Assembly (NCBI GenBank): GCA_977020255.1
Contig: CDROCS010002180.1
Span: 434,001-498,000 of the forward strand
DNA from: Obrimoposthia wandeli
Lineage: Eukaryota
Length of the DNA stretch: 64,000 nucleotides
Direction of reading: 5' to 3'
The number at the start of each line of letters is the position of its first letter. Position 1 is the first letter of the stretch. The position numbers were made by a program, and so were the translations under genes. A model generated the notes under the pieces. The model saw only the letters and a list, made by a program, of their open reading frames with translations, had not been told where the DNA came from and did not search any database. Below are positions 13,570-29,164 of this stretch, in pieces.

Positions 13570-13900
13570 TGTAACATAGATCCTCAGACGGAGGGCCCCA
13601 ACGTGAGTTCTATAGAAGCAGGACTTGTAAATGTTTGTGGCCTACTTGTGTTATGCTTGCCTATCTCAATTTGTATCTGAAGTTTATTTATGGTTAGGTG
13701 TTGTGAAATGTGTGAAGAGCTGTGTATATGAATATTGCAGAATTCCCTTAGTGTGGTGTTGTGTGTAGAGTAGTTAACAACTACTTGCTTGTAAGGGTTC
13801 GGTTTGGTACAATACGGTTTAATGTAGGATATCTTTATTTCTAAACACACGACTTTACGTTTTGACCTGTTCTAAAAACAGCAATACTAATTCTAGTTAT
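13570..13900 (+). mobile_element. 5' part of a putative LTR interrupted by the Polinton (continues 29165-29182)
   Basis: Starts TGTAAC at 13570; beyond the Polinton the sequence resumes and ends CTAACA followed by AG-TGG (PBS-like). Confidence 0.5.
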
Positions 13901-14478
13901 AAGTGTAAAGTGTCGGTTCTAAAACAATAGCACACAAAGCCCTCCCCCTCCCCGAACAAGGAACGAGGAACAAAGCACATCTGGAATTCGCTTAGTCATG
14001 CAGATGTGCTTTGTTCCTCGTTCCTTGTTCGGGGGTGAGGGCTTTGTGTGCTATTGTCTTTGAACCGACACTTTACGTTTTCAATCCTGATTGGTCTTAT
14101 GTGTCATTTACAATTATGTAGGTTAATATTCTGTAACATTAAGTATATAGTTCAAAAATTTAAAAATTTAAAAAATTTTAATTCAAAATTAAAAAATTAA
14201 ATATGGAAATTAAAAAATTAAATATGGAAATTAAAAAATTAAATATGGAAATTAAAAAATTAAAATTTTAATTCAAAAATTAAATATGAAAATTAAAACA
14301 TTAAAATTTTAAAAATAACATTTTGAAATTAAACACAATTGACCGTCCCAAATTTTTATTTGCAACTATTTAATTTACTTAGTACGGCAACCTCATTCCA
14401 GGAGTTAGACTGCCCCGCATAACCGGACAGCTATCGCAGTTTTTATCTTAAGAAACGTTATTGTTTATAGTAGGAGTT
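13901..14478 (+). repeat. left TIR of Polinton, with terminal hairpin 13905-14076 and A-rich tandem array ~14150-14320
   Basis: Reverse complement of ~28562-29154 with scattered mismatches; lacks the terminal AGAG. Confidence 0.92.
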
Positions 14479-14533
14479 TATATTTATATAATGAAGAAAG
14501 CAAAGTAACATCGATAAATATATATTAGTACAA

Positions 14534-15187
14534 TTATAAGCGAACTTGTCCATCAGTAATTTTCCAGATTGGTTTATGAAGACCTGTACAGTTGATTTTG
14601 TATCCCTGTATTGAAATGACGATCATCCATTTGAGTCCAGTTTCCATATTGTCAACATTAAAGTCGTGATCTCGCTTGAAAAGATTAGGATCAGCTCGAA
14701 TTATTATATGATTCCCAACTATAATGTTGAGATGCATCGACGCGAAAGTTGTGTTAAGATCATCAATATCTGATGGATTTAATCTATGTATCTTGAAATC
14801 GTATTTTGACTTATTCAGAGCCACCGGAAACATGAATCCATATATGATTGGAGTCTTCAAAAAATTCATTTGCCAGTTATAAAACATAACCGGCTTGGTT
14901 TACTTCAAATCGTTAGACTCAAATATTACACCTGATGGTCTATTGTTGATGAACGGTTTCTTATGTTTGAGTGTAGAAACTATATCATCAATAAAGAGAT
15001 CCTCATTTGTTGCTTGCTTCTCAATCTTGATAGTCTTGGATAGTTTGTTGTTGTTGCTTGTCATAGTTTGCTTCTTTGGTTTTGATATAAAAACTACATC
15101 ATCATCATCGGTATCCACATCTGTGTCTGTAAGCCTTGTTGTTGGTGACTTCTCGAACTTAAGAGATTTAGTTTGTTTAGAGTTCAT
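14534..15187 (-). pseudogene. Polinton leftward gene (~217 aa): acidic/Lys-rich N-terminus plus globular C-terminal domain, one in-frame TAA
   Basis: ORFs 14900-15187 and 14534-14887 share a frame and are separated only by TAA at 14900-14902 (..ESNDLK*TKPVMFY..). Confidence 0.7.
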
Positions 15188-15189
15188 AT

Positions 15190-15313
15190 CAAAATAATGA
15201 ATTCTATACCAAAAGTGGTAGCTTATATATATATCATCATACTCGATTCTGATTGGATAATCTTTAGCTTAAAAATTTTATATATAGATTGGGTTATTTC
15301 CATTAATTCAATC
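15190..15313. promoter_or_regulatory. divergent promoter between leftward gene and TBP-like gene
   Basis: TATATATA runs at ~15224-15233 and ~15279-15286, each ~35-45 nt from an ATG; ATTGGATAAT at 15252-15261 and a second ATTGG at ~15288. Confidence 0.55.
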
Positions 15314-15806
15314 ATGAATCTTGCAAATATTAATTATAAAGGTAAAGTTAAAGGAGACATCAGTCACTTACCCTACAAAGCCGGGAAACCATGTCAGTAC
15401 GTGCACAGGTGTAAGGATTATACCCTTATAATCTTCCGTTCAGGTATGTTTTTATGTTAGTTAGTTAGTTAGTTAATTATTAGGAGCATGCATGATAATG
15501 GGTTGCAAGAAACCTATTACTACAACTATGCTCAAGTGTCCATTTAGAATAAAGATTGATCGTATTCAATCAGTAACGGTTACTGTCGATTTAGGTAAGA
15601 AGGTGAACCTATACAAGTTGTCTCAAAAGTGTGGAGCTGCATGCATGTTCGAACCTGAGTTGTTTCCTGCTTTGAGGTTTACAAAACACAATCTTCTGTG
15701 CGTCAACATATTTGCAAGCGGGAAAGTGGTCATACTCGGTCTCAAGGATTTGGATTATAACTTTGATGTGACTTTGATAATAACTGATATTTTACTTTTG
15801 ATATAA
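15314..15806 (+). CDS. TATA-box-binding protein (TBP)-like protein, 150 aa, join(15314-15443,15484-15806)
   Basis: Spliced product has both TBP repeats: TLIIFRSGACMIMGCK (cf. TALIFSSGKMVCTGAK) and FEPELFPAL...VNIFASGKVVILGLK (cf. YEPELFPGL...LIFVSGKVVLTGAK); the 40-bp GTATGT...TTAG intron restores the frame. Confidence 0.92.
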
Positions 15807-15848
15807 ACAATAAATTTTAGTTGAATTTTTATTCTTACATGATTTGAA

Positions 15849-16748
15849 ATGCTAGTTGATTATATACTTCATTATACAACTGTTGATGATGTTTTAGTTA
15901 GACGAAAAGTAGGTTATTCTAGAATGAAAGTTTTACACTGGAAATATAGACGTGAAAGTGAAAGATTAAGATCATTAATTATAAATTTTAAAGGGAAACA
16001 ATCTGTAAATGATTTAGCTAAAGCCGGATTTTATAAACATGATGATGATTCAACCGATAAAGTAAAATGTATATACTGCCAAGGTGCGTTATCCGAATGG
16101 GAATGGTATCTTAAACCAATGAAGCAACATATGAAATTTTTTCCTACATGTCCATTTCTTTTAAAGTTAAATGTTTCAAATGGACCAATAATTGAAACTA
16201 TGGACAAGAAAATCGATTTTGATACATCACCATTGATTGGAAAAGTACATGTATCAGATATTGATATAAAATTACCTGATATATGCTATTCAAAATGTTT
16301 AGGACCCTATAATGAGGCTAATGTTATTGAGAAAATCGAAACAGATTGTATAATTGAATATCCTTTGACTATTGAGAAATTCGATATGTTGATGGATACA
16401 AACCAAATCAGATATTTGAAAAGGTTTTTCACAAAAGATAGAATAAAATCTGTTTTAAAATATAAAATGATACGATATGGTGAATACAATTCACTATTTG
16501 AATTGCTTTGTGATTTATCTAATTTAGAAATGAAACCTGAAAAACAATATATAAATATACTTTCATACATTTTAAAGGAACCCGAATGTGTAGTATGTTT
16601 AAATAATCATATTGAAGTAGTATTTCTCCCTTGTGGACATGTAAATACATGTATATCATGTTCTAGAATGTTACATTCATGTCCAGTATGCAGATGTCTG
16701 ATCGAACGGAGAGTAAGAAATGTAAAATTTCATGGTATAAACAATTGA
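15849..16748 (+). CDS. iap: inhibitor of apoptosis (IAP): one BIR domain plus C-terminal RING, 299 aa, intact
   Basis: BIR: LAKAGFY..DKVKCIYCQGALSEW..PMKQHMKFFPTCPF; RING: CVVCLNNHIEVVFLPCGHVNTCISCSRMLHSCPVCR. Confidence 0.95.
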   Translation: MLVDYILHYTTVDDVLVRRKVGYSRMKVLHWKYRRESERLRSLIINFKGKQSVNDLAKAGFYKHDDDSTDKVKCIYCQGALSEWEWYLKPMKQHMKFFPTCPFLLKLNVSNGPIIETMDKKIDFDTSPLIGKVHVSDIDIKLPDICYSKCLGPYNEANVIEKIETDCIIEYPLTIEKFDMLMDTNQIRYLKRFFTKDRIKSVLKYKMIRYGEYNSLFELLCDLSNLEMKPEKQYINILSYILKEPECVVCLNNHIEVVFLPCGHVNTCISCSRMLHSCPVCRCLIERRVRNVKFHGINN

Positions 16749-16766
16749 AATTTATGATTTATATAA

Positions 16767-17033
16767 ATGGATGAAAACAATAAATTAGTTGATGATGCAG
16801 TCGAGGAAATTATAAACGGAACAATAAATGGAGTTCAATACTTTTCTAGTTTTGATGGACTTTCTCGTAATAATATAAAGGAAATTGTTTGCACCCATGT
16901 CTATAGAGATATCAAACGGATAAAGGATTTTGAAATATTCGTTCAAATTAATCGTTCAAACATGATGTATATAACCTTTTCTGCGTCAATTTTTAATTCT
17001 CTGTTGTTGTATATATTAATAAAACGTATATAA
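16767..17033 (+). CDS. hypothetical Polinton protein, 88 aa
   Basis: ATG-initiated ORF filling the gap between IAP and ATPase; TATAAACAAT 31 nt upstream. Confidence 0.6.
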   Translation: MDENNKLVDDAVEEIINGTINGVQYFSSFDGLSRNNIKEIVCTHVYRDIKRIKDFEIFVQINRSNMMYITFSASIFNSLLLYILIKRI

Positions 17034-17063
17034 ACAATCGTTTCTTTTGATTTATTATTATTG

Positions 17064-17711
17064 ATGATGATAAAACTTAAAAATAACGCGGTTTACCAAA
17101 TAGTAGGACCTAGTGGGAGTGGGAAAACACATTTTGTAACTAAATTACTTCAAAATAAAAACATGTTTGATCAAAAGTTTGGTAGAATATACTGGCATTA
17201 CGGAGGTGTAGGTGAATCTGGTCTAACACGAACAGAATTAGGTAAATTGAAGGGTATTCATTTTATTAATGGTTTTGATAATAAATGGTCTGAGAGGTTA
17301 AATTCAGGAGATGTCATTGTAATTGATGACTTGTATGATGAAGCGAATAAAGAGTCGGGTTTTAATAACCTGTTTACCAAAATAGCTAGACATATAAATG
17401 TAACAGTGATTTTTATCACTCAAAATCTCTTTCATCAAGGCGGTCAACACCGTACTCGGAATTTAAATGTACATTATCTAGTATTATTTAAAAATCCGCG
17501 AGATCAAACGGTTATCGACTTTGTTGCCCGTCAAGCTTTCCCTTGCAATAAGCAATATTTGATTGACGCATTTCAAGATGCTACAACTAACCCTCATGGA
17601 TACTTGTTTTTAGATTTTACACAGGAATGTCCAGACGATTTACGCGTGAGAACCGATATTTTCAATAATGATTTTGTATATAAACAAAAGAAAAGCCTAT
17701 CTACTTGTTAA
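17064..17711 (+). CDS. FtsK/A32-like genome packaging ATPase
   Basis: Walker A GPSGSGKT, Walker B VIVIDD, ARH..VTVIFITQNLF, Polinton-typical HGYLFLDF; intact. Confidence 0.95.
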   Translation: MMIKLKNNAVYQIVGPSGSGKTHFVTKLLQNKNMFDQKFGRIYWHYGGVGESGLTRTELGKLKGIHFINGFDNKWSERLNSGDVIVIDDLYDEANKESGFNNLFTKIARHINVTVIFITQNLFHQGGQHRTRNLNVHYLVLFKNPRDQTVIDFVARQAFPCNKQYLIDAFQDATTNPHGYLFLDFTQECPDDLRVRTDIFNNDFVYKQKKSLSTC

Positions 17712-17713
17712 TC

Positions 17714-18025
17714 ATGTCATTTATGAAAGAAACAATGCCTAGTGGAGTTGGACCTAAATGGAGACCGGGTGATAAATTACACGCTAATGATAACAAATTG
17801 ATGCTAAAGAAGAATGCTCATATTAAAAATCTTATTAAATCAGTGCTTCATCAGCGTAAAGTAGTCGATGAATCATTAAAGAAATCGGTAAAGACAGTAA
17901 AGAGAAAACCTGTAAAAAAGAAACCATTAAAGAAGAAACCTGTTAAGAAAGCAGTTGGAAAGTCGGTTAAGAAGTCGGATAAAAAGCGTGTAAATAAACT
18001 AGTTGGTAAATGGATTAAACTATAA
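17714..18025 (+). CDS. Lys-rich basic protein, putative DNA-condensing core protein
   Basis: KRKPVKKKPLKKKPVKKAVGKSVKKSDKK tract; lies in the virion module; function is inference. Confidence 0.7.
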   Translation: MSFMKETMPSGVGPKWRPGDKLHANDNKLMLKKNAHIKNLIKSVLHQRKVVDESLKKSVKTVKRKPVKKKPLKKKPVKKAVGKSVKKSDKKRVNKLVGKWIKL

Positions 18026-18056
18026 ACAATATTGCAAATAGTTTAATTCATTAAAT

Positions 18057-18385
18057 ATGTTATCAAAATCTATACTTCCCTACTTTCAGGCTTTAATCAA
18101 GGCTCCAAGCATATATAGACCACGTATACTCAAGTCATTTCCACCCTTTGTTATTGATAAGTTGGTTGAAGTTTTGTTTAATATTACAAAAGGTACTGTA
18201 AAAATCGGTAATCATAAACATAACCTTAGAAAACATCAAAAAGCTTTACTTGATTTAGTGAATACTAAAAGTAAAACTGGTAAACGTAGAGTAATTCTAA
18301 AACAAAAAGGTGGTTTTATCGGTGCATTAATACCTATAATTGCTATTTAGTATCTCCTTTGATTGCAAAATTGATAAACTCATAA
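18057..18385 (+). CDS. conserved Polinton small virion protein with QKGG|F motif and hydrophobic C-terminal helix (apparent 1-nt frameshift near 18346)
   Basis: ..KRRVILKQKGGFIGALIPIIA; shifted frame continues LVSPLIAKLINS* to 18385. Confidence 0.75.
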
Positions 18386-18436
18386 ACAAAATGGGTAATA
18401 ACATACCAAACATCGATTTTAAATTCACTTGTTGCA

Positions 18437-19458
18437 ATGGAAACGATATGGTACGATCCCGAAAACCCAGCTGGGTACAGCAGCATTACAAAAGTCAATC
18501 GAGTCAAAAGAAAACTCAGAAATGGCTGAGCAATCAGCTAGCATACAGTCTAAATAAGCCAATGAAGCGGAAGTTCCCGACTCGAGCATACAGAACAAGC
18601 GGTCCTAACGATTTATGGCAGGCCGATTTGATGGAAATGATACCATATGCAAGTATCAATGACGGTAACAAGTATATTTTAACATGTATTGACGTGTTTA
18701 CAAGGTATGCGCGTGCATTACCTGTAAAATCTAAATCAGGTAAGGATATAGAGGCTGCTCTAAGTATAATGATTGATAAAACTGTCCCCATACATGTGCA
18801 AACCGATAAGGGTAAAGAGTTTTACAACAAAAATGTAGGTAGTTTATTAAAAAAATTAAATATTGAACATTACTCTGTAGTTTCACAATTCAAAGCTGCC
18901 CTAGTTGAAAGGTTTAATAGAACATTGAGAGATCGATTAAAAATACATTTTATTGCACAAGGCAATAAAAGATGGGTTGACGTTTTACCAAAAGTAATGA
19001 CTTCATACAATCACAGTAAGCATAGAGGTTTAGACGGATTGAGACCTGTCGATATTAATGATAAAAATGCAATGGAAATTTGGTTGAGTCGTAATCAAGT
19101 CGATAAAGTTAATAAACCCAAACATAAGACTGGTGATTATGTTCGGATATCAAAGTTTAGTGGTAGCCCCTTTATTAAAAACTTTGATCCGAATTGGAGT
19201 GATGAAGTGTTTAGGATAGAGAAAATAGACAAACGTGCAAATCCTGTAATGTACTCTATAGTTGATGATGACTGTAATGTAATAACAGGGAAATTTTATG
19301 AACCTGAATTACAAGTAATTGATAAACCTACACTTTTCCGTATCCAATAAGTCGTAAAATCTAAAGGCGGTGGTAAGAATAAACAATATCTCGTAAAGTG
19401 GCATGGATATTCTGAATCAACATGGATCAAAGCAAGCCAGATAGAGACTTCTATATGA
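18437..19458 (+). pseudogene. retroviral-like (c-int) DDE integrase with C-terminal chromodomain; frameshift ~18495 and premature TAA 19348-19350
   Basis: METIWYDPENPAGYSS N-terminus in another frame; DDE triad WQADL / QTDKG / VERFNRTL; after the stop VVKSKGGGKNKQYLVKWHGYSESTWI (chromodomain). Confidence 0.93.
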
Positions 19459-20585
19459 TTTTACCGAGTAATAGTTGTCCGAAAACTCAACCTAATAATA
19501 TGGCTTCATTATTCACTGTAGATTGGGAGAATCCAATTACGTTAAATGGTAAATGGGAGGCGGCATTAACTGAATTTACGTATACAAACACTCCTGTTAT
19601 TTTAAATAAGGGCAGTGAAATTAATTATTCTATTAAATTCTCCAATCAACAGACTGATCAAATATCTTTATCAGTAATTCATACTCAAGTAGAAGTAGAA
19701 AAGAAAGAACCGCAATTGCATGGTGATAAATCAGAACCAAAAGTTATTAAAAAGACAATTAATAAAATATCAAAACTCACCGTCACGTCTAAAGATAAGA
19801 TTGCAAAGCTTTCTATTTCCTTAATCACAGTTGGTGTAGGTATTGATAAAAAGGATAATGTTGTACTAATAAAATCCGTCAACAACAAAAAATTATATAT
19901 CAAGATGGATGCTGACGCTAAAAATGAATTAGGATTCATTTTCAATACATTAACTTCAGAAAGTTTCGAGTCTGATGATAAAGGAGTTTTACAAGGATCA
20001 ACATCTATCAGACCTGATTGCAGTGCACATAATTTACAATATATGCATTATAAAACCGGTTCATACAACAAGAAAACTGTATTTACAGAAGATTTAAATA
20101 ATAATAATGTAAATGCATTAGTAGCATACATTAAATCTAAATGCGACGTTATATTTAAAAGATTTTATATGGATGATAATGATAAGCTAATAAAATTTGT
20201 ATTAAAGAATGGAATTGAGCATATTGGATTTGATCAACGTTTAATGCATGTATTAGGGTTAGATAAATCACGATTTACGGGCAACGGGTCAGGTAAACCT
20301 CGATTAAATTACGAGTTTGATCACATGTATTCTAGTCTGTGTGAACCTGTAAACGTTGGAGGTCAAATGATACCCTTATTAAAATCTATATGGTTAGATA
20401 AAAATAAAGCACCAGGAGACACGGTTAATATCGCAATATACAGACCCATGTATATCCCTTTAGCATCAAATGTAATCTCAAACATTGAAATTAATATTAG
20501 AAACGATGCAGGTGTTCCAATAAGTTTTTCCAACAATGCAAAAGTATCCCTTACCATACATGTCCGTTGTATAGATCAGGTATAA
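19422..20585 (+). CDS. minor capsid protein (penton), intact, 387 aa
   Basis: Polinton-typical N-terminus DFYMILPSNS..NNMASLFTVDWENPITLNGKWEAALTEFTY and C-terminal MYIPL..IEINIRNDAG..VSLTIH. Confidence 0.88.
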   Translation: MDQSKPDRDFYMILPSNSCPKTQPNNMASLFTVDWENPITLNGKWEAALTEFTYTNTPVILNKGSEINYSIKFSNQQTDQISLSVIHTQVEVEKKEPQLHGDKSEPKVIKKTINKISKLTVTSKDKIAKLSISLITVGVGIDKKDNVVLIKSVNNKKLYIKMDADAKNELGFIFNTLTSESFESDDKGVLQGSTSIRPDCSAHNLQYMHYKTGSYNKKTVFTEDLNNNNVNALVAYIKSKCDVIFKRFYMDDNDKLIKFVLKNGIEHIGFDQRLMHVLGLDKSRFTGNGSGKPRLNYEFDHMYSSLCEPVNVGGQMIPLLKSIWLDKNKAPGDTVNIAIYRPMYIPLASNVISNIEINIRNDAGVPISFSNNAKVSLTIHVRCIDQV

Positions 20586-20621
20586 ACAATCTGTATTCAA
20601 AAATAGTTGTGCATTACAGTT

Positions 20622-21028
20622 ATGAATATAATTGAGACATTTAGTGGGCCTCAACAAGGTGGTGAATTACCATATTTTGTAGGTAAACAGTACGGTTCGG
20701 GATGGTTGAAAACATTGGGGCGGTTAGCATTCCCTATACTGAAAAGATTAGGCCGTGTTGGAGTTAAAACAGTTCAAGATGTAATAATGAACAACAAATC
20801 TGTGTTACCAATGCTTAAACAACATGCACTAGGGAAGTTGCCGGAGCCATACCGGAGGCTAAGGAAGCTTTTGGTACAGTTGTTAAAATTATTAAAAATC
20901 GACGTAAACGTAAAGCAAGTGAAGCAGCACAAATGGTTGAACCCGAAACTAAAAAGCAAGAGGGTAGTGGTAGAAAGAAAGCATCTAATATAAACAAACG
21001 AAGAAAACAAGGTACAATATTTGCTTAA
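20622..21028 (+). CDS. Polinton core/cement protein with QQGG and QYGSG motifs and amphipathic helix (pVI-like by inference); frameshift ~20832
   Basis: GPQQGGELPYFVGKQYGSGWLKTLGRLAFPILKRLG; shifted frame gives ..KQEGSGRKK..KRRKQGTIFA* ending just before the hexon ATG. Confidence 0.78.
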
Positions 21029-21030
21029 TA

Positions 21031-22253
21031 ATGGCTTGTGGTAAATCTGAATTATGTATTTTTGATCGAGCTTTGCCTCAGGTAGTTGTAAATAATGGTA
21101 GCTTTGAAGATATATATCCAACAAACAATATTACCGGAACAAGAACATCAGAGATTCTGTTTAAAATCCAAGGTTCAGATATTGAGAACTTAGATTTGAA
21201 TGATACCTTGTTGTTTGTGAAAATTAAAGTAACGAAAACTGATGGTACAGATATAGCTGTTACAGATTATGTGGTCCCATCAAATTTCTTGATGCATTCC
21301 CTATTTAAAAGCATAGATATATCAATGAATAATACTGTAGTAGAAACCCATCCTCAATATGCACAAAAAGCTATGATTGAAACCATACTAAACTATAGCA
21401 CAGACACTAAAGACACTTGTTTGTCGAGTATAGGTTATGATGATACTGAAGATAATCGTAAAGGTTGGGCTGATCGCTCAAAAGAAATTGACTTGTGTGG
21501 GACTCTTCGATCTGATATTTTTGAGCAACCAAAGTATCTCTTACCTGGTGTGTCTATCATGGTAAGACTTGTACCTAATAAATCTATGTTTAGTCTGAAC
21601 TACGGAACGACTCCATCGCGAATCATATTTATTGAAGCTAAACTTAAAGTCAGAAGAGTCAGAGTTGAGAATGATGTTTTAATGGGACATAATATTGGTC
21701 TTGAATCTAGGAATGCTGTATATCCCTATACTCGCACAAAGCTAATGTATCATACCTTAGCCATCGGTTCTACGAGTTTTTACAAGGATCAAGTGTTTGA
21801 TGATGAACAATTGCCTAAATTTGTGTTGATTACGTTGCAAGCAGGTGAAAAACTTATCGGTAATGGTGCTACAGACTCTTCAACATTCGATCATTCTAAT
21901 GTTAACACTATCAGTCTTGCTAGAAACAGTGATTTTAACGAATCTTACAGTACAAACTTTGAAACAGGTGAAACCACCTTTGCATATGTCCAATCTATCA
22001 TTAGAAATATGGGTAATTTGGATAAGAATATAAACAATGGCGTATCACTGGATGAATTCAAAACCAAATATCCATTTTCACGTTTGTTTTAGCCCCTGAC
22101 TTTGATATCACGCAAAACCAATTAGCAAAACAGGGTAATTTACGCCTTGACATCAAGTTTCACAAGTCATTAACAGTCCCAACAAACGTACTGATTTAAG
22201 GGATTTTTGATTCTGAGTTTGAAATAACTAAAGGCCGACGTGTGATTGTATGA
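21031..22253 (+). pseudogene. double jelly-roll major capsid protein (hexon); frameshift ~22078 and in-frame TAA near 22198
   Basis: MACGKSELCIF..LDLNDTLLFVKIKV, SDIFEQPKYLLPGV; shifted frame completes FTFVLAPDF..QGNLRLDIKF..VLI*GIFDSEFEITKGRRVIV*. Confidence 0.92.
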
Positions 22254-22610
22254 AGTGAGTTTTTTAATTTATGTTTTAAGATTTTATTAACAACAAGTAC
22301 TGTTCAGGTGAATGAAATAACTAGTTTGCTGCTCGGACCGCGATTTAAGGGTGTATACCCGTTGGAAATAATCCTAACATTAACGCCTGGTGGATATATT
22401 GTCAATACACATACCTCAAATCTTACTGGAGACCACTGGATTGCGTTATTCGTGAGACGGAATTCTGTACATGTGTATGACCCTCTTGGAGTATACTATC
22501 CGGGAAAACTTATCAAGCATGTAGAGTCTCAAGGAAAACATGTATATTACAACAAAATTCGTTCTCAAAACCCACTGACTACTAATTGCGGTCCACTATG
22601 TATCTTATAA
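22250..22610 (+). CDS. adenain-like cysteine protease, join(22250-22254,22298-22610)
   Basis: Catalytic H (GDHW), D (YDPLG), Q/C (SQ..TTNCG); a 43-bp GTGAGT...TTAAC..AAG intron gives MNTVQVNEI; ATG overlaps the hexon stop (ATGA); TAA at 22610 may be premature. Confidence 0.88.
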
Positions 22611-23100
22611 TTGTATGATCAAACTATATAAATGTCAAACATTTTAATTTGTGTTGATTGGTAATAAAATTTGTATTCAAAATCGTATTTGTTTTATAAA
22701 TAGCTTCAACTACCCAGTCGAAATTTTAAAAAATTTGAGTTTTGATAAATTAAAAAATAGATTTAAAATCTACTAATTAAGAGAAAATTAATGGTGTGAA
22801 TTATTTTTAAAAATTCATAGTCTAACGGTATGAATATCGGTTATGAAAAATATCATAATTGATTGACCGTAATTAACCTTTATGATAACGTGTGTAGCAA
22901 CTAGGGAATAAAGGGTCTTTATGACACATTCCTAGTTTGTAATAATGAAAGTACACACGTGTGTGTGTGCATCTAGGGCAGAAACTACACTGACTGTGAA
23001 CCATATATAAACAATCAGTGTAGATGCATTCATCAATTTTATCACAATTATCAAAAGTAAGTATTTTGATTTTATTTTAATTTTATTATTTTTTTTTTAG

Positions 23101-23472
23101 ATGTCGAAAATTATTTTCGCGTACAATGCTAAGAAAAGATGGACGATGAAGCCTGTAGTCGATATGGATGATGATGATGTCGACTTGGATGCGACACCAC
23201 AACAAAAAGGTAATTTTTTGATTAGTATTTTTAATTTAATTTTCATTTAGCAATGCCCAGTGTCACAACACCACCAATATCGATTGCGCCATGGATACCA
23301 ACAATATATGATGATGATGCTACTAGGAAAAGAAGGAAACAAAAGAAGCCGAAAACCTCTGATGATGATGATGATGCTACTAGGAAAAGAAGGAAACAAA
23401 AGAAGCCGACAATTTCTGATGATGATGATGATAATAAGAAAAATCCAAAAGTTTTTTTATCTTCTAAGAAAT
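23101..23472 (+). CDS. spliced Polinton gene, join(23101-23209,23251->23472), with acidic/basic 19-aa repeats; runs into the gap; upstream intron 23057-23100
   Basis: GTAAGT..TTAG and GTAATT..TTAG introns keep frame; DDDATRKRRKQKKP(K/T) repeated with 57-bp period. Confidence 0.7.
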
Positions 23473-24010
23473 NNNNNNNNNNNNNNNNNNNNNNNNNNNN
23501 NNNNNNNNNNNNNNNNNNNNNNNNNNNNNNNNNNNNNNNNNNNNNNNNNNNNNNNNNNNNNNNNNNNNNNNNNNNNNNNNNNNNNNNNNNNNNNNNNNNN
23601 NNNNNNNNNNNNNNNNNNNNNNNNNNNNNNNNNNNNNNNNNNNNNNNNNNNNNNNNNNNNNNNNNNNNNNNNNNNNNNNNNNNNNNNNNNNNNNNNNNNN
23701 NNNNNNNNNNNNNNNNNNNNNNNNNNNNNNNNNNNNNNNNNNNNNNNNNNNNNNNNNNNNNNNNNNNNNNNNNNNNNNNNNNNNNNNNNNNNNNNNNNNN
23801 NNNNNNNNNNNNNNNNNNNNNNNNNNNNNNNNNNNNNNNNNNNNNNNNNNNNNNNNNNNNNNNNNNNNNNNNNNNNNNNNNNNNNNNNNNNNNNNNNNNN
23901 NNNNNNNNNNNNNNNNNNNNNNNNNNNNNNNNNNNNNNNNNNNNNNNNNNNNNNNNNNNNNNNNNNNNNNNNNNNNNNNNNNNNNNNNNNNNNNNNNNNN
24001 NNNNNNNNNN
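23473..24010. other. assembly gap (538 N)
   Basis: Run of N. Confidence 1.
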
Positions 24011-24070
24011 ATTCTAATTATTTAAATAAACGTTTTGGGGATATAAATGATATAAAATCAAATTCTCCCG

Positions 24071-24132
24071 ACTGCCATAGCTGCCCGGTAACGCGGGGCA
24101 GTCTAACTCCTGGAATGGGGTCGCATAGTAAG
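24071..24132 (+). promoter_or_regulatory. internal copy of a ~62-bp GC-rich TIR cassette, 29 nt downstream of a TATA-like box
   Basis: Aligns with 28600-28662 and the reverse complement of ~14378-14440; TATAAATG at 24042. Confidence 0.75.
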
Positions 24133-24330
24133 TTAACTAAATCAAGAAGTTACCTCTTACTTTTTAAACCAGGGACACCTGTTGGGTCACCTGTTAATTC
24201 GTTAGAAAATTTCAATGTAAATGAGATATACTCGGGTTTTGAAAATATCCCGTTTAAAAAATATTTTAATCAACTAAAGAAAGTTAAAAATCAAAATATT
24301 GATTTAAGTAAACTGAAAACAGAAGGTAAG

Positions 24331-24621
24331 ATGGGTAAACGATTTCGTCAGAAGCTGCGTAGATTGAGAAAACAACCAGCAGGTATAACAATATTTGCAA
24401 ATTTATTAGGGTCTTGCAAACCCATTAATATTAGTCCAGGTCTGAAAATTACAGATCTGGCAAATAAATTATATGAAGTCTTCGGGACTGACCAAATTTA
24501 TTTTTATCGTAATGGCATGCCCTTTGAAGGGGAAGCTACTATTGGCAATGTTTTACATGAGGGGGCTATTATCCATGTATACCCTAAACTTCGTGGAGGA
24601 AGTAACTTATGTACATTGTAA
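24331..24621 (+). CDS. ubiquitin-like domain ending LRGG (24589-24600), in frame with downstream pPolB
   Basis: ITIFANLLGSCKPINISPGLKITDLANKLYEVFGTDQIYFYRNGMPFEGEATIGNVLHEGAIIHVYPKLRGG aligns by eye with ubiquitin; true start uncertain because the frame is open back to the gap. Confidence 0.8.
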   Translation: MGKRFRQKLRRLRKQPAGITIFANLLGSCKPINISPGLKITDLANKLYEVFGTDQIYFYRNGMPFEGEATIGNVLHEGAIIHVYPKLRGGSNLCTL

Positions 24622-27600
24622 AAGTATTGCATAAACGTTAATCATGGAATAGAATGTCATAGTGTAATGCTTAAATATTATAAATTTAAAAGCGGTTTTA
24701 TTTGTCCACATTGTGATGTGTTATATTGTATTGTCTATCAAACATTTTATAATGATCATAAGGATCATCTGACGTATTTTAAATCTAAAAAGTCGGCATA
24801 CAAACGTAAAGTAATGAGTGTACCAACAATAGACAACAATAAAATAACAAAAACTAATAATTTTGATGAAGAGTTTGATGTGGTAGACTCGTGGGAACCG
24901 GATAGTGTTGTAGAAATTGATACTAATCCTGAAGTTGTAGAAATTATTGAGCCTTTAACCCCTAATGACATCTTAAATAATAATAATATTGATGAACTTA
25001 TAGATCAGGACGAGTTTATAACAGAAAATGATTTTTTCGACTCGCTCCTAGCTATTACGGATGATGACTTTGATAATATTGTTACAATTAATTCAGATAA
25101 TACATTAACTTTTAACAATCAAATAGGAGGTGCAATTCAATCAAACCTTGTTTTTGATGTTAGTGGGTTAAACATGCTTAAACTATACATTAACGATACT
25201 ATGCTAACTGAACTTACTATCAGTATAGATGTGTTTGGTCCCTGTAAAATACAGTTTGGTGTTGAAACCGAATTTGTCAATAATGAGGGTCAGCATAAAA
25301 CATGGCATGTAAGCTGTAAAGCAAATATTTTTGAACAAGATTTTATCACTACAAGAACAGTTGAGCTCAACAATAAAATTGAAATTTATAAGGATATGAG
25401 TTCGGGATGGTCAGTATTTAAAATTCTGTTGGTATCCTTTAAATTTACTGCACTTTAAAACGTAGCAGGATCATCATTTATAAAAACCCCGGTTGCGCTT
25501 GCTAAAACACTATCTATAGTGAACGTAAATAATACTGATGATCAGTGTTTTAAATACGCTGTTCTCAGTATCTTACACTATAAAGATTTCAATCGAACAG
25601 ACAAAGAGTTGAAAACTATAATGAATATTTAAATGAACTAATATGCGAGCTTGGTTCTATGAGGATAGACTGCATCAAGGTGTTTGAAAAACTCAATAAT
25701 TTTGCGATAACAGTATTTTCCTATAAACCTACAAAGGTAAAGCCTCATAGTAGTCATCTAGTGTTTAAAAACCTAGATGTTAACGTTATTTATAGAACGA
25801 GTCTTAGGCAGTGCAAAAAAGTAGTAAACTTGTTGCTGTTGAAACAGAGCGGTAATTATCACTATACAGGGAATACAAAACTGAATAGACTTTTATATAC
25901 TCAAAAATATAATGTGCGTCTCTTTTCGGTTTTCGAACCACGATTTCATATGACAAACACAGGGCACATTGTAATATTAATACAGATTTAACAACCTTGT
26001 TTACAATGCCTAAAGATATCAAGTGTCAGTTTTCCGACTATTCTAAATCTATTGCGCCACCATTTGTTGTATATGCCGACTTTGAGTCAATACTCGAGCC
26101 GCATAATACTTTCAAACACATTCATAAACCAATATCTATAGGGATGATTTTGAAAAACAACACTAATAATTCAATACAATATTTTAGTTATTACGGTCTG
26201 CAGTGTGCTAAAAACTTTGTAGATAAATTAACTGAGTTGATAAATGGTGAAGTGGCAGATTTTTGGGTAAATAGTATTAATGTTCCTATGGTTTTTATTA
26301 ATAATGACATGTTGAACTTTAGAGATTGCACTAATTGCTATCTTTGTAGAAAATTAAACGATCGTATGGTTAGAGATCATGATCATATCACGGGTAAATA
26401 CTTGGGTGCGGCATGCAACAAATGCAATTTAAGTCGCAAGTTTGCAAAGAGACCAGTTTTACCTGTGGTGTTTCATAACCTTATGGGTTATGATATACAT
26501 CTTATTCTAAAATATGCTGACTTGAAAGGTAAATACTTTTCAATTATCCCTAAATCAAGTGAAACGTTCATGTCCCTCCGTATAGAGATGAAGAGGGGGA
26601 CATTGAAATTCATTGATTCATACCTTTTTACAACGTCAAGTCTTGAATCCTTAGTTTCATACTTGTCAAGTTGTCCTTATACTACACAATACCTAAACCC
26701 TAATATTGCAACAAGTAAGGCGGTATTTCCATATGAATATATTAGTGGTGTTGATAGGCTTGTGGAGAGGCAGTTACCTGCTAAATCTGAGTTTCCTTCT
26801 CGAGTCACTGATCAACAATATAATGAAGCCCTAATGATGTGGCCGTATTAGGGTGTAATACTATTAAAGACTACATGCTTGAGTATATGAAACTTGAGGT
26901 GTACCTGTTATGTGATGTTTTTGAGGCCTTCAGACAGAAAGTAAGGGATGATGATAATCTAGAGGCGCTCAATTTTTTTAGTATCCCGGTCTCAGTTGGG
27001 CTAGCGCATTAAAAACGTTAGAGTATGACGTGGATTTATTGCATGATCCCGAAATGTATAACATGTTTGAGGCAGGGATACGGGGAGAGATGACTTTCAT
27101 CAAAAAACATTACGTTAAAACAACAGATGAAACATTCCTCCTATACATTGACATAAACAACCTATATGGCTGGGCCATGAGTCAACCGTTACCACATACA
27201 GATTTTACATGGGTATATGACGGTTTTGAAGCGATAATTGAGCTTATAACTGAGAGGGATATTCACGGTAATATGCAGGACTTAAGTCTTAAAGAACATG
27301 GATACTTGATGGAAATTGATTTACACATACCCATCAGTATTCATGATAAACGTGATGACTTACCGATTGCGCCTAATAGAGAAATCCCTCCCGGCTCAAA
27401 AGCTTCAAAGCTGTTGATGACCCATGAGGATAAAAATAATTACATCATACACTCACAACTACTACAATTTTACTTGTTTCTGGGCACAGAAATTAAACAA
27501 GTGCATAGAGCAATAAAGTTTCATCAAGCTCCTATATTTAAAACATATATTTATATCAATAGCCGGAAACGGCATGTAGATAAAGATGTTCTCTTAAAAC

Positions 27601-28094
27601 AAATGATTAAAGATCAAAGGTTAGATACTAGTAATTACCCGCTCACACATGAGTTATTTAACGATACTCATCGAAATGTTATTGGAAAGTTTAAAGATGA
27701 AAGCAAAAGGACAGTGCTTTATGATGAATGGGTATTTCTGAAACCTAAATGCTACTCATTGAAAACCAGTATGAGGGCTAAGGGTATCTCCCTTAAACAA
27801 ACCGAAATCAGACATGAGCATTACATCAAGTGTTATGTTGATGATGAAATTATAACTGCCGGTCAGACACGTATTTTATCTCGTAATCATCAATTATTTA
27901 CAATGTATAATTATAAAATTGCGTTAAGGTGTTATGACGATAAAAGGGTTTGGATTGAGAAAATCAAATCCGTCGCATATGGACACTATAGTCTAAGACA
28001 GGTGTATAAAATCTGGGGTAACCTCTTGAAAGTATTGACTTATATCCTTCTTATTTTTATTGTAATAAGCAGAATATTGTATGTATCTTTTTAA
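24622..28094 (+). pseudogene. polB: protein-primed family B DNA polymerase (terminal-protein region, OTU-like segment, exonuclease, EndoVII-like insert, polymerase); fragmented, motifs B and C deleted
   Basis: SSGWS, NTDDQCFKYAV, VVYADFESIL (ExoI), RDHDHITGKYLGAACNKCN, FHNLMGYD (ExoII), YIDINNLYGWAM (motif A), IGKFKDE, DDKR..AYGHY; several stops and frameshifts. Confidence 0.95.
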
Positions 28095-28211
28095 ATGCGA
28101 TAGTATGTATATATTTTTAATGCTATAGTATGTATATATTTTTATTGATGTTTATTATTATTAATACATTGTATGTATCATAACCATGTCTTGACTTCCT
28201 ACTAGCTACTC

Positions 28212-28270
28212 ATTGGATAATTTCGTTGGATAATTTCATTGGATAATTTTAACAAATTCTCTATAAATAT
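28212..28270 (+). promoter_or_regulatory. three 13-bp repeats containing TTGGATAATTT followed by TATAAATA
   Basis: TTGGATAATTT at 28213, 28226 and 28239; TATAAATA at 28262, 42 nt before ATG 28304. Confidence 0.65.
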
Positions 28271-28303
28271 ATACACACTTCAACCAATTTCTTATTATTT
28301 CAA

Positions 28304-28543
28304 ATGACTATTTTTAAATAAAAATTACAAGCTCTCCATGATAACCTGAGCCCTACCTTGATGGCACAGTATACTGAAAAATACTTAAACTTATTTGTTG
28401 CACCAGAACATTTTGTCTCAAGGATTGAAGAACTTTATATGTATCATCTGTTTAACGGAGACTTTAAACCTAAAGTTGCAACAATCATTAAAATAGAAGA
28501 AGAAGAAAGCATGGATTGTGTTAATGAATATAATTATGTATAA
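28304..28543 (+). pseudogene. small Polinton ORF (~79 codons) with TAA at codon 6
   Basis: ATG 28304 is in frame with ORF 28358-28543; preceded by a TATA box. Confidence 0.45.
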
Positions 28544-28561
28544 ACATAGACTTTTTTACTA

Positions 28562-29158
28562 GACTCCTAATATAAACAAAAACGTTTTTAAAGATAAAAA
28601 CTGCGATAGCTTTCCGGTTATGCAGGGCAGTCTAACTCCTGGAATGAGGTCGCAGTACTAAGTAAATTAAATAGTTGCAAATAAAAAGTTGGGACAGTCA
28701 ATTGGGTTTAATTTCAAATGTTTAATTTTTTAATTTAAAATTTTTAAATTGTAATTCTTAAATTGTGAATTCTAAATTAAAATTTTTTAATTTAATTTTT
28801 AATTTCTAAATTTTTTAATCTAGTTTTTTAATTTCTAAATGTTTTATAATTTAAATTTAATTTTTAATTTCTAAATATTTTTTTTTTATTTTCTAAATTT
28901 TTAATTTTTGAACTATATACTTAATGCTTACATAATATTAACCTACATAATTGTAAATGACACATAAGACCAATCAGGATTGAAAACGTAAAGTGTCGGT
29001 TCAAAAACAATAGCACACAAAGCCCTCCCCCCGAACAAGGAACGAGGAACAAAGCACATCTGAATGACTAAGCGAATTCCAGATGTGCTTTGTTCCTTGT
29101 TCCTTGTTCGGGGGGCTTAGTATGCTATTGTTTTAGAACCGACACTTTACACTTCTCT
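28562..29158 (-). repeat. right TIR of Polinton with terminal hairpin 28988-29150
   Basis: Reverse complement of the left TIR; ends CTCT followed by TSD AGTTAT. Confidence 0.92.
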
Positions 29159-29164
29159 AGTTAT

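Follow-up and report, generated by a model that had tools for sequence, protein, structure and literature searches.

The Polinton and its TBP-like gene

The window, that is, the whole 64,000-nucleotide stretch of Obrimoposthia wandeli DNA that was analysed, contains a Polinton/Maverick (adintovirus-like) element of 15,258 bp. The element has terminal inverted repeats (arms 13901-14480 and 28560-29154), is flanked by a 6-bp target duplication (13893-13898 and 29157-29162), and yields Pfam matches to integrase, A32 ATPase, PolB (pPolB) and endonuclease VII; its capsid labels are weak (Capsid_N E 0.004). At least 150 copies, at 96-100% identity, are present in the 1.35-Gb genome. The TBP-like gene lies near the left end, between a divergent neighbour and a putative late cassette:

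13899..29156, + strand: Polinton/Maverick element
14534..14887, - strand: divergent neighbour gene, product predicted to be an OB-fold single-stranded DNA-binding protein of the T7 gp2.5 type
15279..15286, + strand: canonical TATA box TATATATA, 35 nt 5' of the TBP-like start
15314..15443, + strand: TBP-like exon 1, N-lobe strands S1-S4; carries GKPCQ and IIFRS, with H1 reduced to a short loop
15326-15328, 15389-15391 and 15434-15436, + strand: codons at the Asn69 position, of the Pro at the Phe99 position, and at the Phe116 position (exon 1)
15444..15483, + strand: putative intron, GT-AG, phase 1, 40 nt, splitting a Gly codon
15484..15806, + strand: TBP-like exon 2, strand S5, a short linker replacing H2, and the complete C-lobe
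15567-15572, + strand: QS (exon 2)
15651-15668, + strand: acidic stirrup with the Phe190-Pro191 positions (exon 2)
15675-15677 and 15699-15707, + strand: Arg at the I194 position; Cys and Asn at the V203 and L205 positions (exon 2)
15711-15713, + strand: Phe207 position (exon 2)
15849..22610, + strand: putative late cassette, delineated by gene order, Pfam matches and boxes

The cassette encodes, in this order, an IAP (BIR+RING), an 88-codon ORF, the A32 ATPase, a Lys-rich ORF, a protein X-like ORF, integrase, a putative minor capsid protein, core, major capsid and protease. Weak Pfam matches, gene order and known motifs underlie the naming of the capsid, core and protease genes; the putative core protein 3' of the box at 20581..20589 is presumably pVII-like. 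The major capsid and protease genes are broken in the window copy.

Each end of the Polinton folds on itself over about 170 nt (13901-14076; 28988-29154), and at 24071-24125, directly after a masked stretch, 55 nt of a terminal-repeat segment recur internally with 87% identity. In a related element (L051:5616-7684) there are two tandem minor-capsid-like genes and an ORF that we take to be ubiquitin-conjugating-like. Four Polinton contigs (L148, L149, L150, L151) had been binned inside bacterial metagenome-assembled genomes; most likely they are mis-binned eukaryotic or viral DNA.

The divergent neighbour has no Pfam match and produces weak rows of viral single-stranded DNA-binding proteins. 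The model of its product (pLDDT 90.5) can be superimposed on gp2.5 with a middling score (Z 7.2, rmsd 3.0, 104 residues aligned), and the predicted fold suggests that it probably serves replication and is not a partner of the TBP-like protein. Since the fold resembles a single-stranded DNA-binding protein, the label 'ISXO2-like' was dropped, and so was the idea that this product substitutes for the missing TBP helices described below. The gene is present in 34 fetched loci, several of which have an apparent short intron at its 5' end.

After joining the two exons the TBP-like gene has 150 codons. In 29 of 30 sister loci the intron could be mapped; it varies from 35 to 51 nt through all three length phases and is always bounded by GT and AG. 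The exons, by contrast, have constant lengths, 130 nt for exon 1 (29/29 mapped loci) and 323 nt for exon 2 (30/30). Since the length varies with GT and AG kept and the exon lengths fixed, the intron behaves as a genuine one, from which we infer splicing. Two further families of elements in the genome carry an intron at an identical position; in a third, the 150 codons form one uninterrupted frame. The upstream TATA box TATATATA is identical in 28/29 sister loci and is likely the host-driven early promoter of the gene, judging by its sequence.

The TATAAAC box

The late cassette features a different box. Whereas the TBP-like gene has a canonical TATA, TATAAACAA is found in the window 31-47 nt 5' of seven starts, and related copies occur in the terminal repeats:

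15802..15810, + strand: TATAAACAA, overlapping the TBP stop, 47 nt 5' of the IAP start; unchanged in 29/29 sister loci
16736..16744, + strand: TATAAACAA, 31 nt 5' of the 88-codon ORF
17029..17037, + strand: TATAAACAA, 35 nt 5' of the packaging ATPase
17679..17687, + strand: TATAAACAA, inside the ATPase coding end, 35 nt 5' of the Lys-rich ORF and 30 nt before the ATPase stop
18021..18029, + strand: TATAAACAA, 36 nt 5' of the protein X-like ORF
20581..20589, + strand: TATAAACAA, 41 nt 5' of the putative core protein
20989..20997, + strand: TATAAACAA, 42 nt 5' of the putative major capsid gene
28539..28579, + strand: two outward TATAAAC boxes in the right terminal repeat, mirrored at 14463-14482, - strand

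In dereplicated relatives, ATAAAC precedes every ATPase start (15/15, where 0.6 would be expected), and likewise 9/11 starts of protein X-like and 9/13 of major capsid genes, as against only 2/39 TBP starts; that is, a non-canonical box stands before late genes and is nearly absent before the gene of the factor itself, as in viral TBP late-promoter systems. It is found before 2/9 core starts, thus missing at 7/9 core and 4/13 capsid starts, and also at all protease starts viewed. The first position of the box is T in 35/39 cases, the distance to the start is 31-57 nt with a median of 36, and there are no antisense copies (0/93) and only two cases of GTAAAC (2/93). Over nine cassettes TATAAAC occurs 64 times in the sense and 3 times in the antisense orientation, the corresponding numbers for TATAAAA being 23 and 24.

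The TBP genes themselves have TATAWAWR 5' of 18/39 starts (dereplicated relatives), and 16 of 30 TATA boxes of TBP genes are followed by TCA at 29-30 nt; unlike these canonical boxes, the late boxes show no sharp initiator peak. Upstream of the TATA-less TBP-like genes (L031-L085 and genomic G000 loci) we observed TGTTTWA at 25-80 nt in 15 of 27 cases, with 2.0 expected in this set, which was not dereplicated. This sequence is reminiscent of a forkhead site or of a degenerate late box in reversed orientation, and it may serve for autoregulation.

It might be argued that TATAAAC signals 3' ends, or arises as a by-product where stop codons and conserved coding words happen to lie, and that the TBP-like protein acts elsewhere, e.g. 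at the termini. Indeed, the TAA of the box is the upstream stop in five of the seven window sites, some boxes fall in conserved codons 5' of the minor and major capsid genes, and each terminal repeat holds outward copies beyond the last genes, some 570-620 nt from the ends and with no gene downstream. However, the box at 17679, which is 30 nt before the upstream stop and 35 nt before the next start, is placed according to the start rather than the stop, which speaks against a poly(A) signal. Moreover, the ATPase genes differ in their upstream neighbours, yet every one of the fifteen carries the box. Hence we regard this explanation as most improbable, and treat TATAAAC below as a candidate promoter box.

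The control provided by a distant Polinton group, which has no TBP of its own in the stretches read, is a weak one: ATAAAC precedes 1/33 starts there, the elements being partial, several starts being misplaced or cross-matches, and three stretches containing nested TBP-bearing elements. Scans of viral contigs with TBP, ATPase and capsid queries confirmed no relative, and with it no close TBP-less one, so the box and the protein may be merely co-inherited.

The initial annotation had proposed that the box is unusual at its seventh position and that the N-terminal half of the protein would read this base. Both premises agree with published work: the N-lobe faces the 3' half of a TATA box (PMC1636458), and C at position 7 is unfavourable for cellular TBP. 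With this base a yeast TATA element loses its activity (PMC4457894), and binding by TBP involves a forced Hoogsteen pair, in which way cellular TBP can nevertheless bind a C7 box (PMC4457894, PMC4402545). An ordinary TBP is likely to use the TATAAAC box poorly.

A second kind of Polinton TBP was found in L149 (10818-12713), flanked by two mutually related genes. In this one element a TATAAGAA box, with ordinary bases at positions 7 and 8, precedes 3/11 starts. As far as a single element can tell, the contrast favours the C7 idea. A scan of viral contigs with the L149 TBP produced one weak locus.

Fold, DNA face and origin of the TBP-like protein

Exon 2 matches the Pfam TBP family (PF00352) with E 1.1e-12 and 48.1 bits (cut-off 22.9); against solved TBPs it yields E 9e-11 for the plant TBP, aligning best with its second repeat. 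Exon 1 alone matches no Pfam family. The motifs quoted in the initial annotation (GKPCQ, IIFRS, QS, FEPELFP, IFASGKVV) and its gene and intron coordinates are all correctly placed. It had further named a predicted TBP saddle as a check, and this is what AlphaFold2 produced when run with 56 sequences on P0002, an intronless relative, the model being that of the relative and not of the window's own product. The model is a saddle with the whole ten-stranded sheet (pLDDT 94.6); it aligns with residues 66-240 of yeast TBP over 148 residues (Z 13.3, rmsd 2.6; Foldseek E 3.6e-10). The atlas search returned TBP clusters only.

The shortening of the first repeat, claimed earlier, can now be located. 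The segment N69-Y94 (H1) has 15-19 residues compared to 26 in host TBP, being about 9 shorter against two host TBPs, and the segment G125-Q158 (H2) has 19-24 residues in 118/122 relatives compared to 34, being about 13 shorter. The P0002 model contains no helix of four or more residues before residue 82, that is, no N-lobe helix. The N-lobe helices H1 and H2 are thus predicted to be absent, and the canonical combination of H1 and H2 in both lobes with a basic patch on the N-lobe H2 was not found. According to the model, the bigger change of the N-lobe would be the loss of these two helices, which face away from DNA and bind host regulators.

To describe the DNA-facing residues we use yeast numbering, which we take to be the plant TBP numbers plus 42 and which was checked against alignments of host TBPs. 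Residues were counted in the 122 of 145 proteins retained as full length and in a wider set of 142 domain rows from 133 more distant proteins, obtained by an index-free search with five canonical TBPs removed; all counts are upper bounds, since the searches used these motifs or their profile.

In the N-lobe, the initial annotation had reported the loss of one of the four intercalating Phe at GKPCQ. The loss is real, and the missing Phe99 aligns with Pro and not with Cys of this motif; the register is fixed by a sister family with a full-length hairpin, in which Pro stands exactly 17 residues before Phe116. Pro occupies this position in 120/121 full-length relatives and 95/99 wider rows, and three intercalating Phe are kept in place of the canonical four. 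The V71 position is Asn (118/121; 67/73 in the wider rows), A101 is Gln or Met in full-length relatives, V122 is Arg (120/121; 109/113), and T124 is Met (122/122; 123/125). N69 is kept in 121/121 (as NINY in the window copy), as is F116. The earlier description of the central Asn pair was correct for the second repeat, where QS replaces QN, and overlooked the retained Asn69; with Ser at N159 in 119/122 full-length relatives, one of the two canonical Asn is gone.

The C-lobe DNA face has as many fixed replacements as the N-lobe one. Apart from Ser at N159, V161 is Thr or Ser in 121/122 full-length relatives, I194 is Arg (120/122, loosening to 87/134 in the wider rows), V203 is Cys (122/122, loosening to 89/131), and L205 is Asn (122/122; 121/129). 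At the same time E186, E188, F190, P191 and F207 are kept. I194, V203 and L205 are the three altered-specificity positions of TBPm3, contacting base pair 2 (PMC1636458). Two conserved positions carry private substitutions in the window copy, and L148, found via its ATPase, has a box count of 11:0, yet differs at the N69, V122 and T124 positions. We also considered a 'mirror of TBPm3' argument at the position that we number L114, presumably the residue expected to make room for G at position 7. It is I or V in 102/121 close relatives, and the argument is weakened by Leu in 47/111 wider ones.

The pattern indicates that the DNA face is rebuilt in both lobes. As the C-lobe face is rebuilt and N69 is kept, the asymmetry noticed initially would concern the helices and the Phe residues and not base readout, and the claim that the changes are confined to the half reading C7 is not supported. 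For the same reason we find it quite improbable, even slightly more so than the decoy discussed below, that only the N-terminal repeat is fitted to C7 while the C-terminal repeat reads TATA as in the host protein. Such a division would agree with positions 1-4 of the box still being TATA (T at the first position in 35/39), with F190, P191 and F207 being kept, and with F99, V122 and T124 being retained in the TATAAGAA-type TBP of L149; against it, five base-facing positions of the C-lobe are fixed to new residues, three of them being those of TBPm3. Specificity is likely built by both lobes, since residues of the N-lobe would act on the 3' side of the box and those of the C-lobe on the 5' side.

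The claim that the TFIIB-side repeat keeps both of its intercalating Phe and the acidic stirrup is borne out; the stirrup is E-x-E in 117/122 and D-x-E in 5/122 relatives, that is, acidic at both positions in 122/122. According to Ravarani et al. (PMC7221094), E186 and E188 bind TFIIB, the basic patch of N-lobe H2 binds TFIIA, Mot1/BTAF1, Brf1/2 and TAF1, and among viral TBPs, which are nearly always paired with a viral TFIIB, about 40% retain the first of the acidic residues. Among the 18 window ORFs Pfam identified no TFIIB gene, a result that covers neither the 538-nt masked stretch nor the unnamed ORFs. Genome-wide there are 12 Pfam TFIIB matches, the inspected ones resembling host exons, compared to at least 150 element TBPs. 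Since both acidic positions are kept and no element TFIIB was found, which is the opposite of the viral pattern, the simplest reading of these sequences is that the adapter surface has been kept for host TFIIB and the regulatory surface removed.

An intact stirrup, together with the loss of one of four intercalating Phe and of Asn159, would also suit a decoy that ties up TFIIB (or Brf) and so lowers transcription in the host, as had been suggested with host shut-off in mind. The TBP-TFIIB contact, however, is small and depends on bent DNA. Further, the DNA-facing positions are as conserved as the stirrup, and the matching box stands 5' of the late genes and not of the TBP gene, while a decoy would need neither a dozen fixed new DNA-facing residues nor a matching box. 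The decoy idea is therefore weak, and we consider it quite unlikely.

A somewhat less unlikely alternative to a dedicated late-gene factor is a general TBP that has become regulator-proof and has little sequence preference, the box being read by a host forkhead/Sox-type factor or by host TBP. The box resembles sites of both families, ATAAACA fitting a forkhead core and AACAAT a Sox core, and the forkhead-like TGTTTWA occurs 5' of the TATA-less TBP genes in the not dereplicated set described above. The loss of H2 alone would account for the N-lobe (PMC7221094), and binding of a C7 box by cellular TBP has been described (PMC4402545). On the other hand, a dozen DNA-facing positions are fixed to new residues, the boxes have no antisense copies, hardly ever read GTAAAC and keep their spacing to the start, and the yeast element is inactivated by C7 (PMC4457894). 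We therefore retain the late-gene factor as the preferred reading.

The exon 2 database search produced 75 relatives and a profile many more, mostly of 145-165 residues. At 55 metagenome loci, with three weak ones (L086-L088) left out, a core Polinton gene lies beside the TBP gene in 23, only the conserved neighbour gene in 13, and neither in 19, these being short contigs. The reduced N-lobe is maintained, given dN/dS of 0.25 in the N-lobe and 0.15 in the C-lobe (seven disjoint pairs from 42 intronless genes).

Sequence identity, selection and phylogeny together refute the reading of the gene as a recent, decaying copy of host TBP, the possibility left by the initial annotation to phylogeny and selection. 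That reading could appeal to the two altered positions of the window copy and to the neutral-looking private changes in young copies (in exon 1, 18 non-synonymous to 2 synonymous); once a copy has inserted, however, private changes of a neutral kind are to be expected. Exon 2 shares about 35% identity with host TBPs compared to up to 62% with relatives from other samples, and purifying selection acts between lineages. In a 30-row tree, with only four host rows, no archaeal or giant-virus rows and a long-branch warning, the host rows are separated from the element proteins at 100/99; no nesting among host TBP/TRF genes was seen.

Relatives with long H2 segments, a few of which are insertions and not helices, already carry the new DNA-facing residues: Pro at F99 in 17/17 aligned, Arg at V122 in 21/23 and Asn at L205 in 21/23. 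Hence, taking the cellular TBP as ancestral, these sequences suggest that the DNA face likely changed before the helices were lost. Six proteins (P0216, P0226, P0234, P0243, P0254, P0255) have segments of H1 and H2 length, an acidic instead of basic H2, and the new DNA-facing residues. Neither the helix-bearing sister P0075 nor an L149-type TBP was found in this genome with the queries used. Within 4 kb of the host genome two TBP genes stand back to back, and the genome further has two TRF-like genes without introns (L092, L094, L095, that is, G000 contigs C238, C60, C1092).

A candidate late-gene switch and known systems

Taken together, the observation of the initial annotation is confirmed and its interpretation is partly supported. 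We consider it probable that the protein is a promoter factor for late genes, one that relies on host TFIIB and evades the regulators of host TBP. What was observed is the structure of the gene, its pattern of residues and of purifying selection, and the position and strand of the box; the fold and the missing helices come from a predicted model; and DNA binding, TFIIB binding, timing and escape from regulators would follow from comparison of sequences. The element's own minimal TBP, made early from a host-type TATA, would be a one-protein switch for the late genes. It would bind the TATAAACA box through its rebuilt, more polar DNA face, preferring TATAAACA over TATAAAAG. On the 3' side, Pro at Phe99 and Asn, Arg and Met at V71, V122 and T124 may relax the second kink and tolerate C:G at position 7, and positions 2-4 on the 5' side may be re-read by Ser, Thr, Arg, Cys and Asn at N159, V161, I194, V203 and L205. 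The intact acidic stirrup would recruit host TFIIB and RNA polymerase II, with transcription starting 25-32 nt after the box, and Mot1/BTAF1, TAF1, Brf1 and TFIIA would be escaped, since the helix bound by the regulators is predicted to be absent.

A bolder version, which we put forward tentatively and hold to be somewhat less likely true than false, is that no smaller self-sufficient promoter switch is known from a eukaryotic virus-like element. It would be an orthogonal TBP of 150 residues that reads TATAAACA with three Phe and a polar face, uses host TFIIB and is invisible to Mot1/BTAF1, TAF1, Brf1 and TFIIA. It would have arisen stepwise, by change of the DNA face, then loss of the basic patch, then deletion of both helices, the steps being visible in living lineages; with the TATAAGAA-type TBP it would constitute a natural code relating residues to TATA variants. 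The system offers a concrete and cheap test of how Polintons time their particle genes, involving one small protein and one eight-base box. It also amounts to a natural test of two questions, namely whether three intercalating Phe and no regulatory helix suffice for a working TBP, and how minor-groove residues set TATA specificity. An orthogonal TBP-box pair using host TFIIB would be a compact tool for synthetic gene control.

In the literature searched, with subscription papers and bioRxiv supplements outside its scope, we found no study of a Polinton TBP or its box, and the accessible text of PMC12220804, PMC13193136, PMC1935006 and 10.64898/2026.06.19.733378 has nothing on this protein. For adintoviruses and MELD viruses, a 'TBP' label appears on maps of related elements, in the figure legends (Starrett et al., PMC8502044, 10.1101/697771); the available text gives no analysis of fold, residues, promoter box or mechanism. 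What is new here is the residue map and the proposed stepwise origin of the Polinton TBP.

Compared to cellular TBP/TRF (PF00352; yeast Spt15, 1YTB), the protein shares the saddle over 148 residues and the residues at positions N69, F116, Q158, E186, E188, F190, P191, F207 and V213. It differs in being about 27 residues shorter, in the predicted absence of N-lobe H1 and H2, in Pro at F99, and in polar residues at V71, V122, N159, V161, I194 and L205. The three positions altered in TBPm3 (PMC1636458) differ here naturally, but to Arg, Cys and Asn. The TBP of L149, a single element, is also encoded within a Polinton and associated with a variant box 5' of capsid genes; however, it has 185 residues, keeps the H1 and H2 segments, four Phe, V122 and T124, and carries other substitutions.

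The TBPs of large dsDNA viruses have likewise lost the eukaryotic N-lobe regulatory signature, which PMC7221094 reads as escape from Mot1/BTAF1, and nearly all of these viruses encode and co-evolve with their own TFIIB. In the Polinton family both positions are instead acidic in 122/122, no element TFIIB was found among the window ORFs, and the helix is predicted to be deleted and not altered. This would reverse the pattern described for other viral TBPs, most of which have given up host TFIIB for one encoded by the virus.

By analogy, the closest working counterpart appears to be KSHV ORF24. According to 10.1101/2025.08.25.672222, recognition of TATT late promoters by ORF24 depends on an N-x-N pair and further polar residues, and the beta- and gammaherpesvirus proteins ORF24/BcRF1/UL87 resemble the Polinton protein in the viral TBP fold, the polar DNA face, the first-strand N-x-N and the non-canonical late box. 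The same source describes ORF24 as a large multidomain protein with four Phe and without the acidic TFIIB residues, which needs five partners. The Polinton protein, by contrast, has 150 residues, has lost one Phe, keeps the stirrup and has no known partner; homologues of the herpesvirus partners were not seen among the scanned window ORFs. BcRF1 is matched in Foldseek with E 8.5e-3 only, and with its 150 residues and its stirrup the protein does not fall in the ORF24/UL87/BcRF1 family. We describe it as a member of the TBP superfamily that is not a canonical TBP and probably belongs with the late-promoter kind of viral TBPs. If the proposed switch is real, Polintons would have arrived independently, by a second route, at what takes herpesviruses six proteins.
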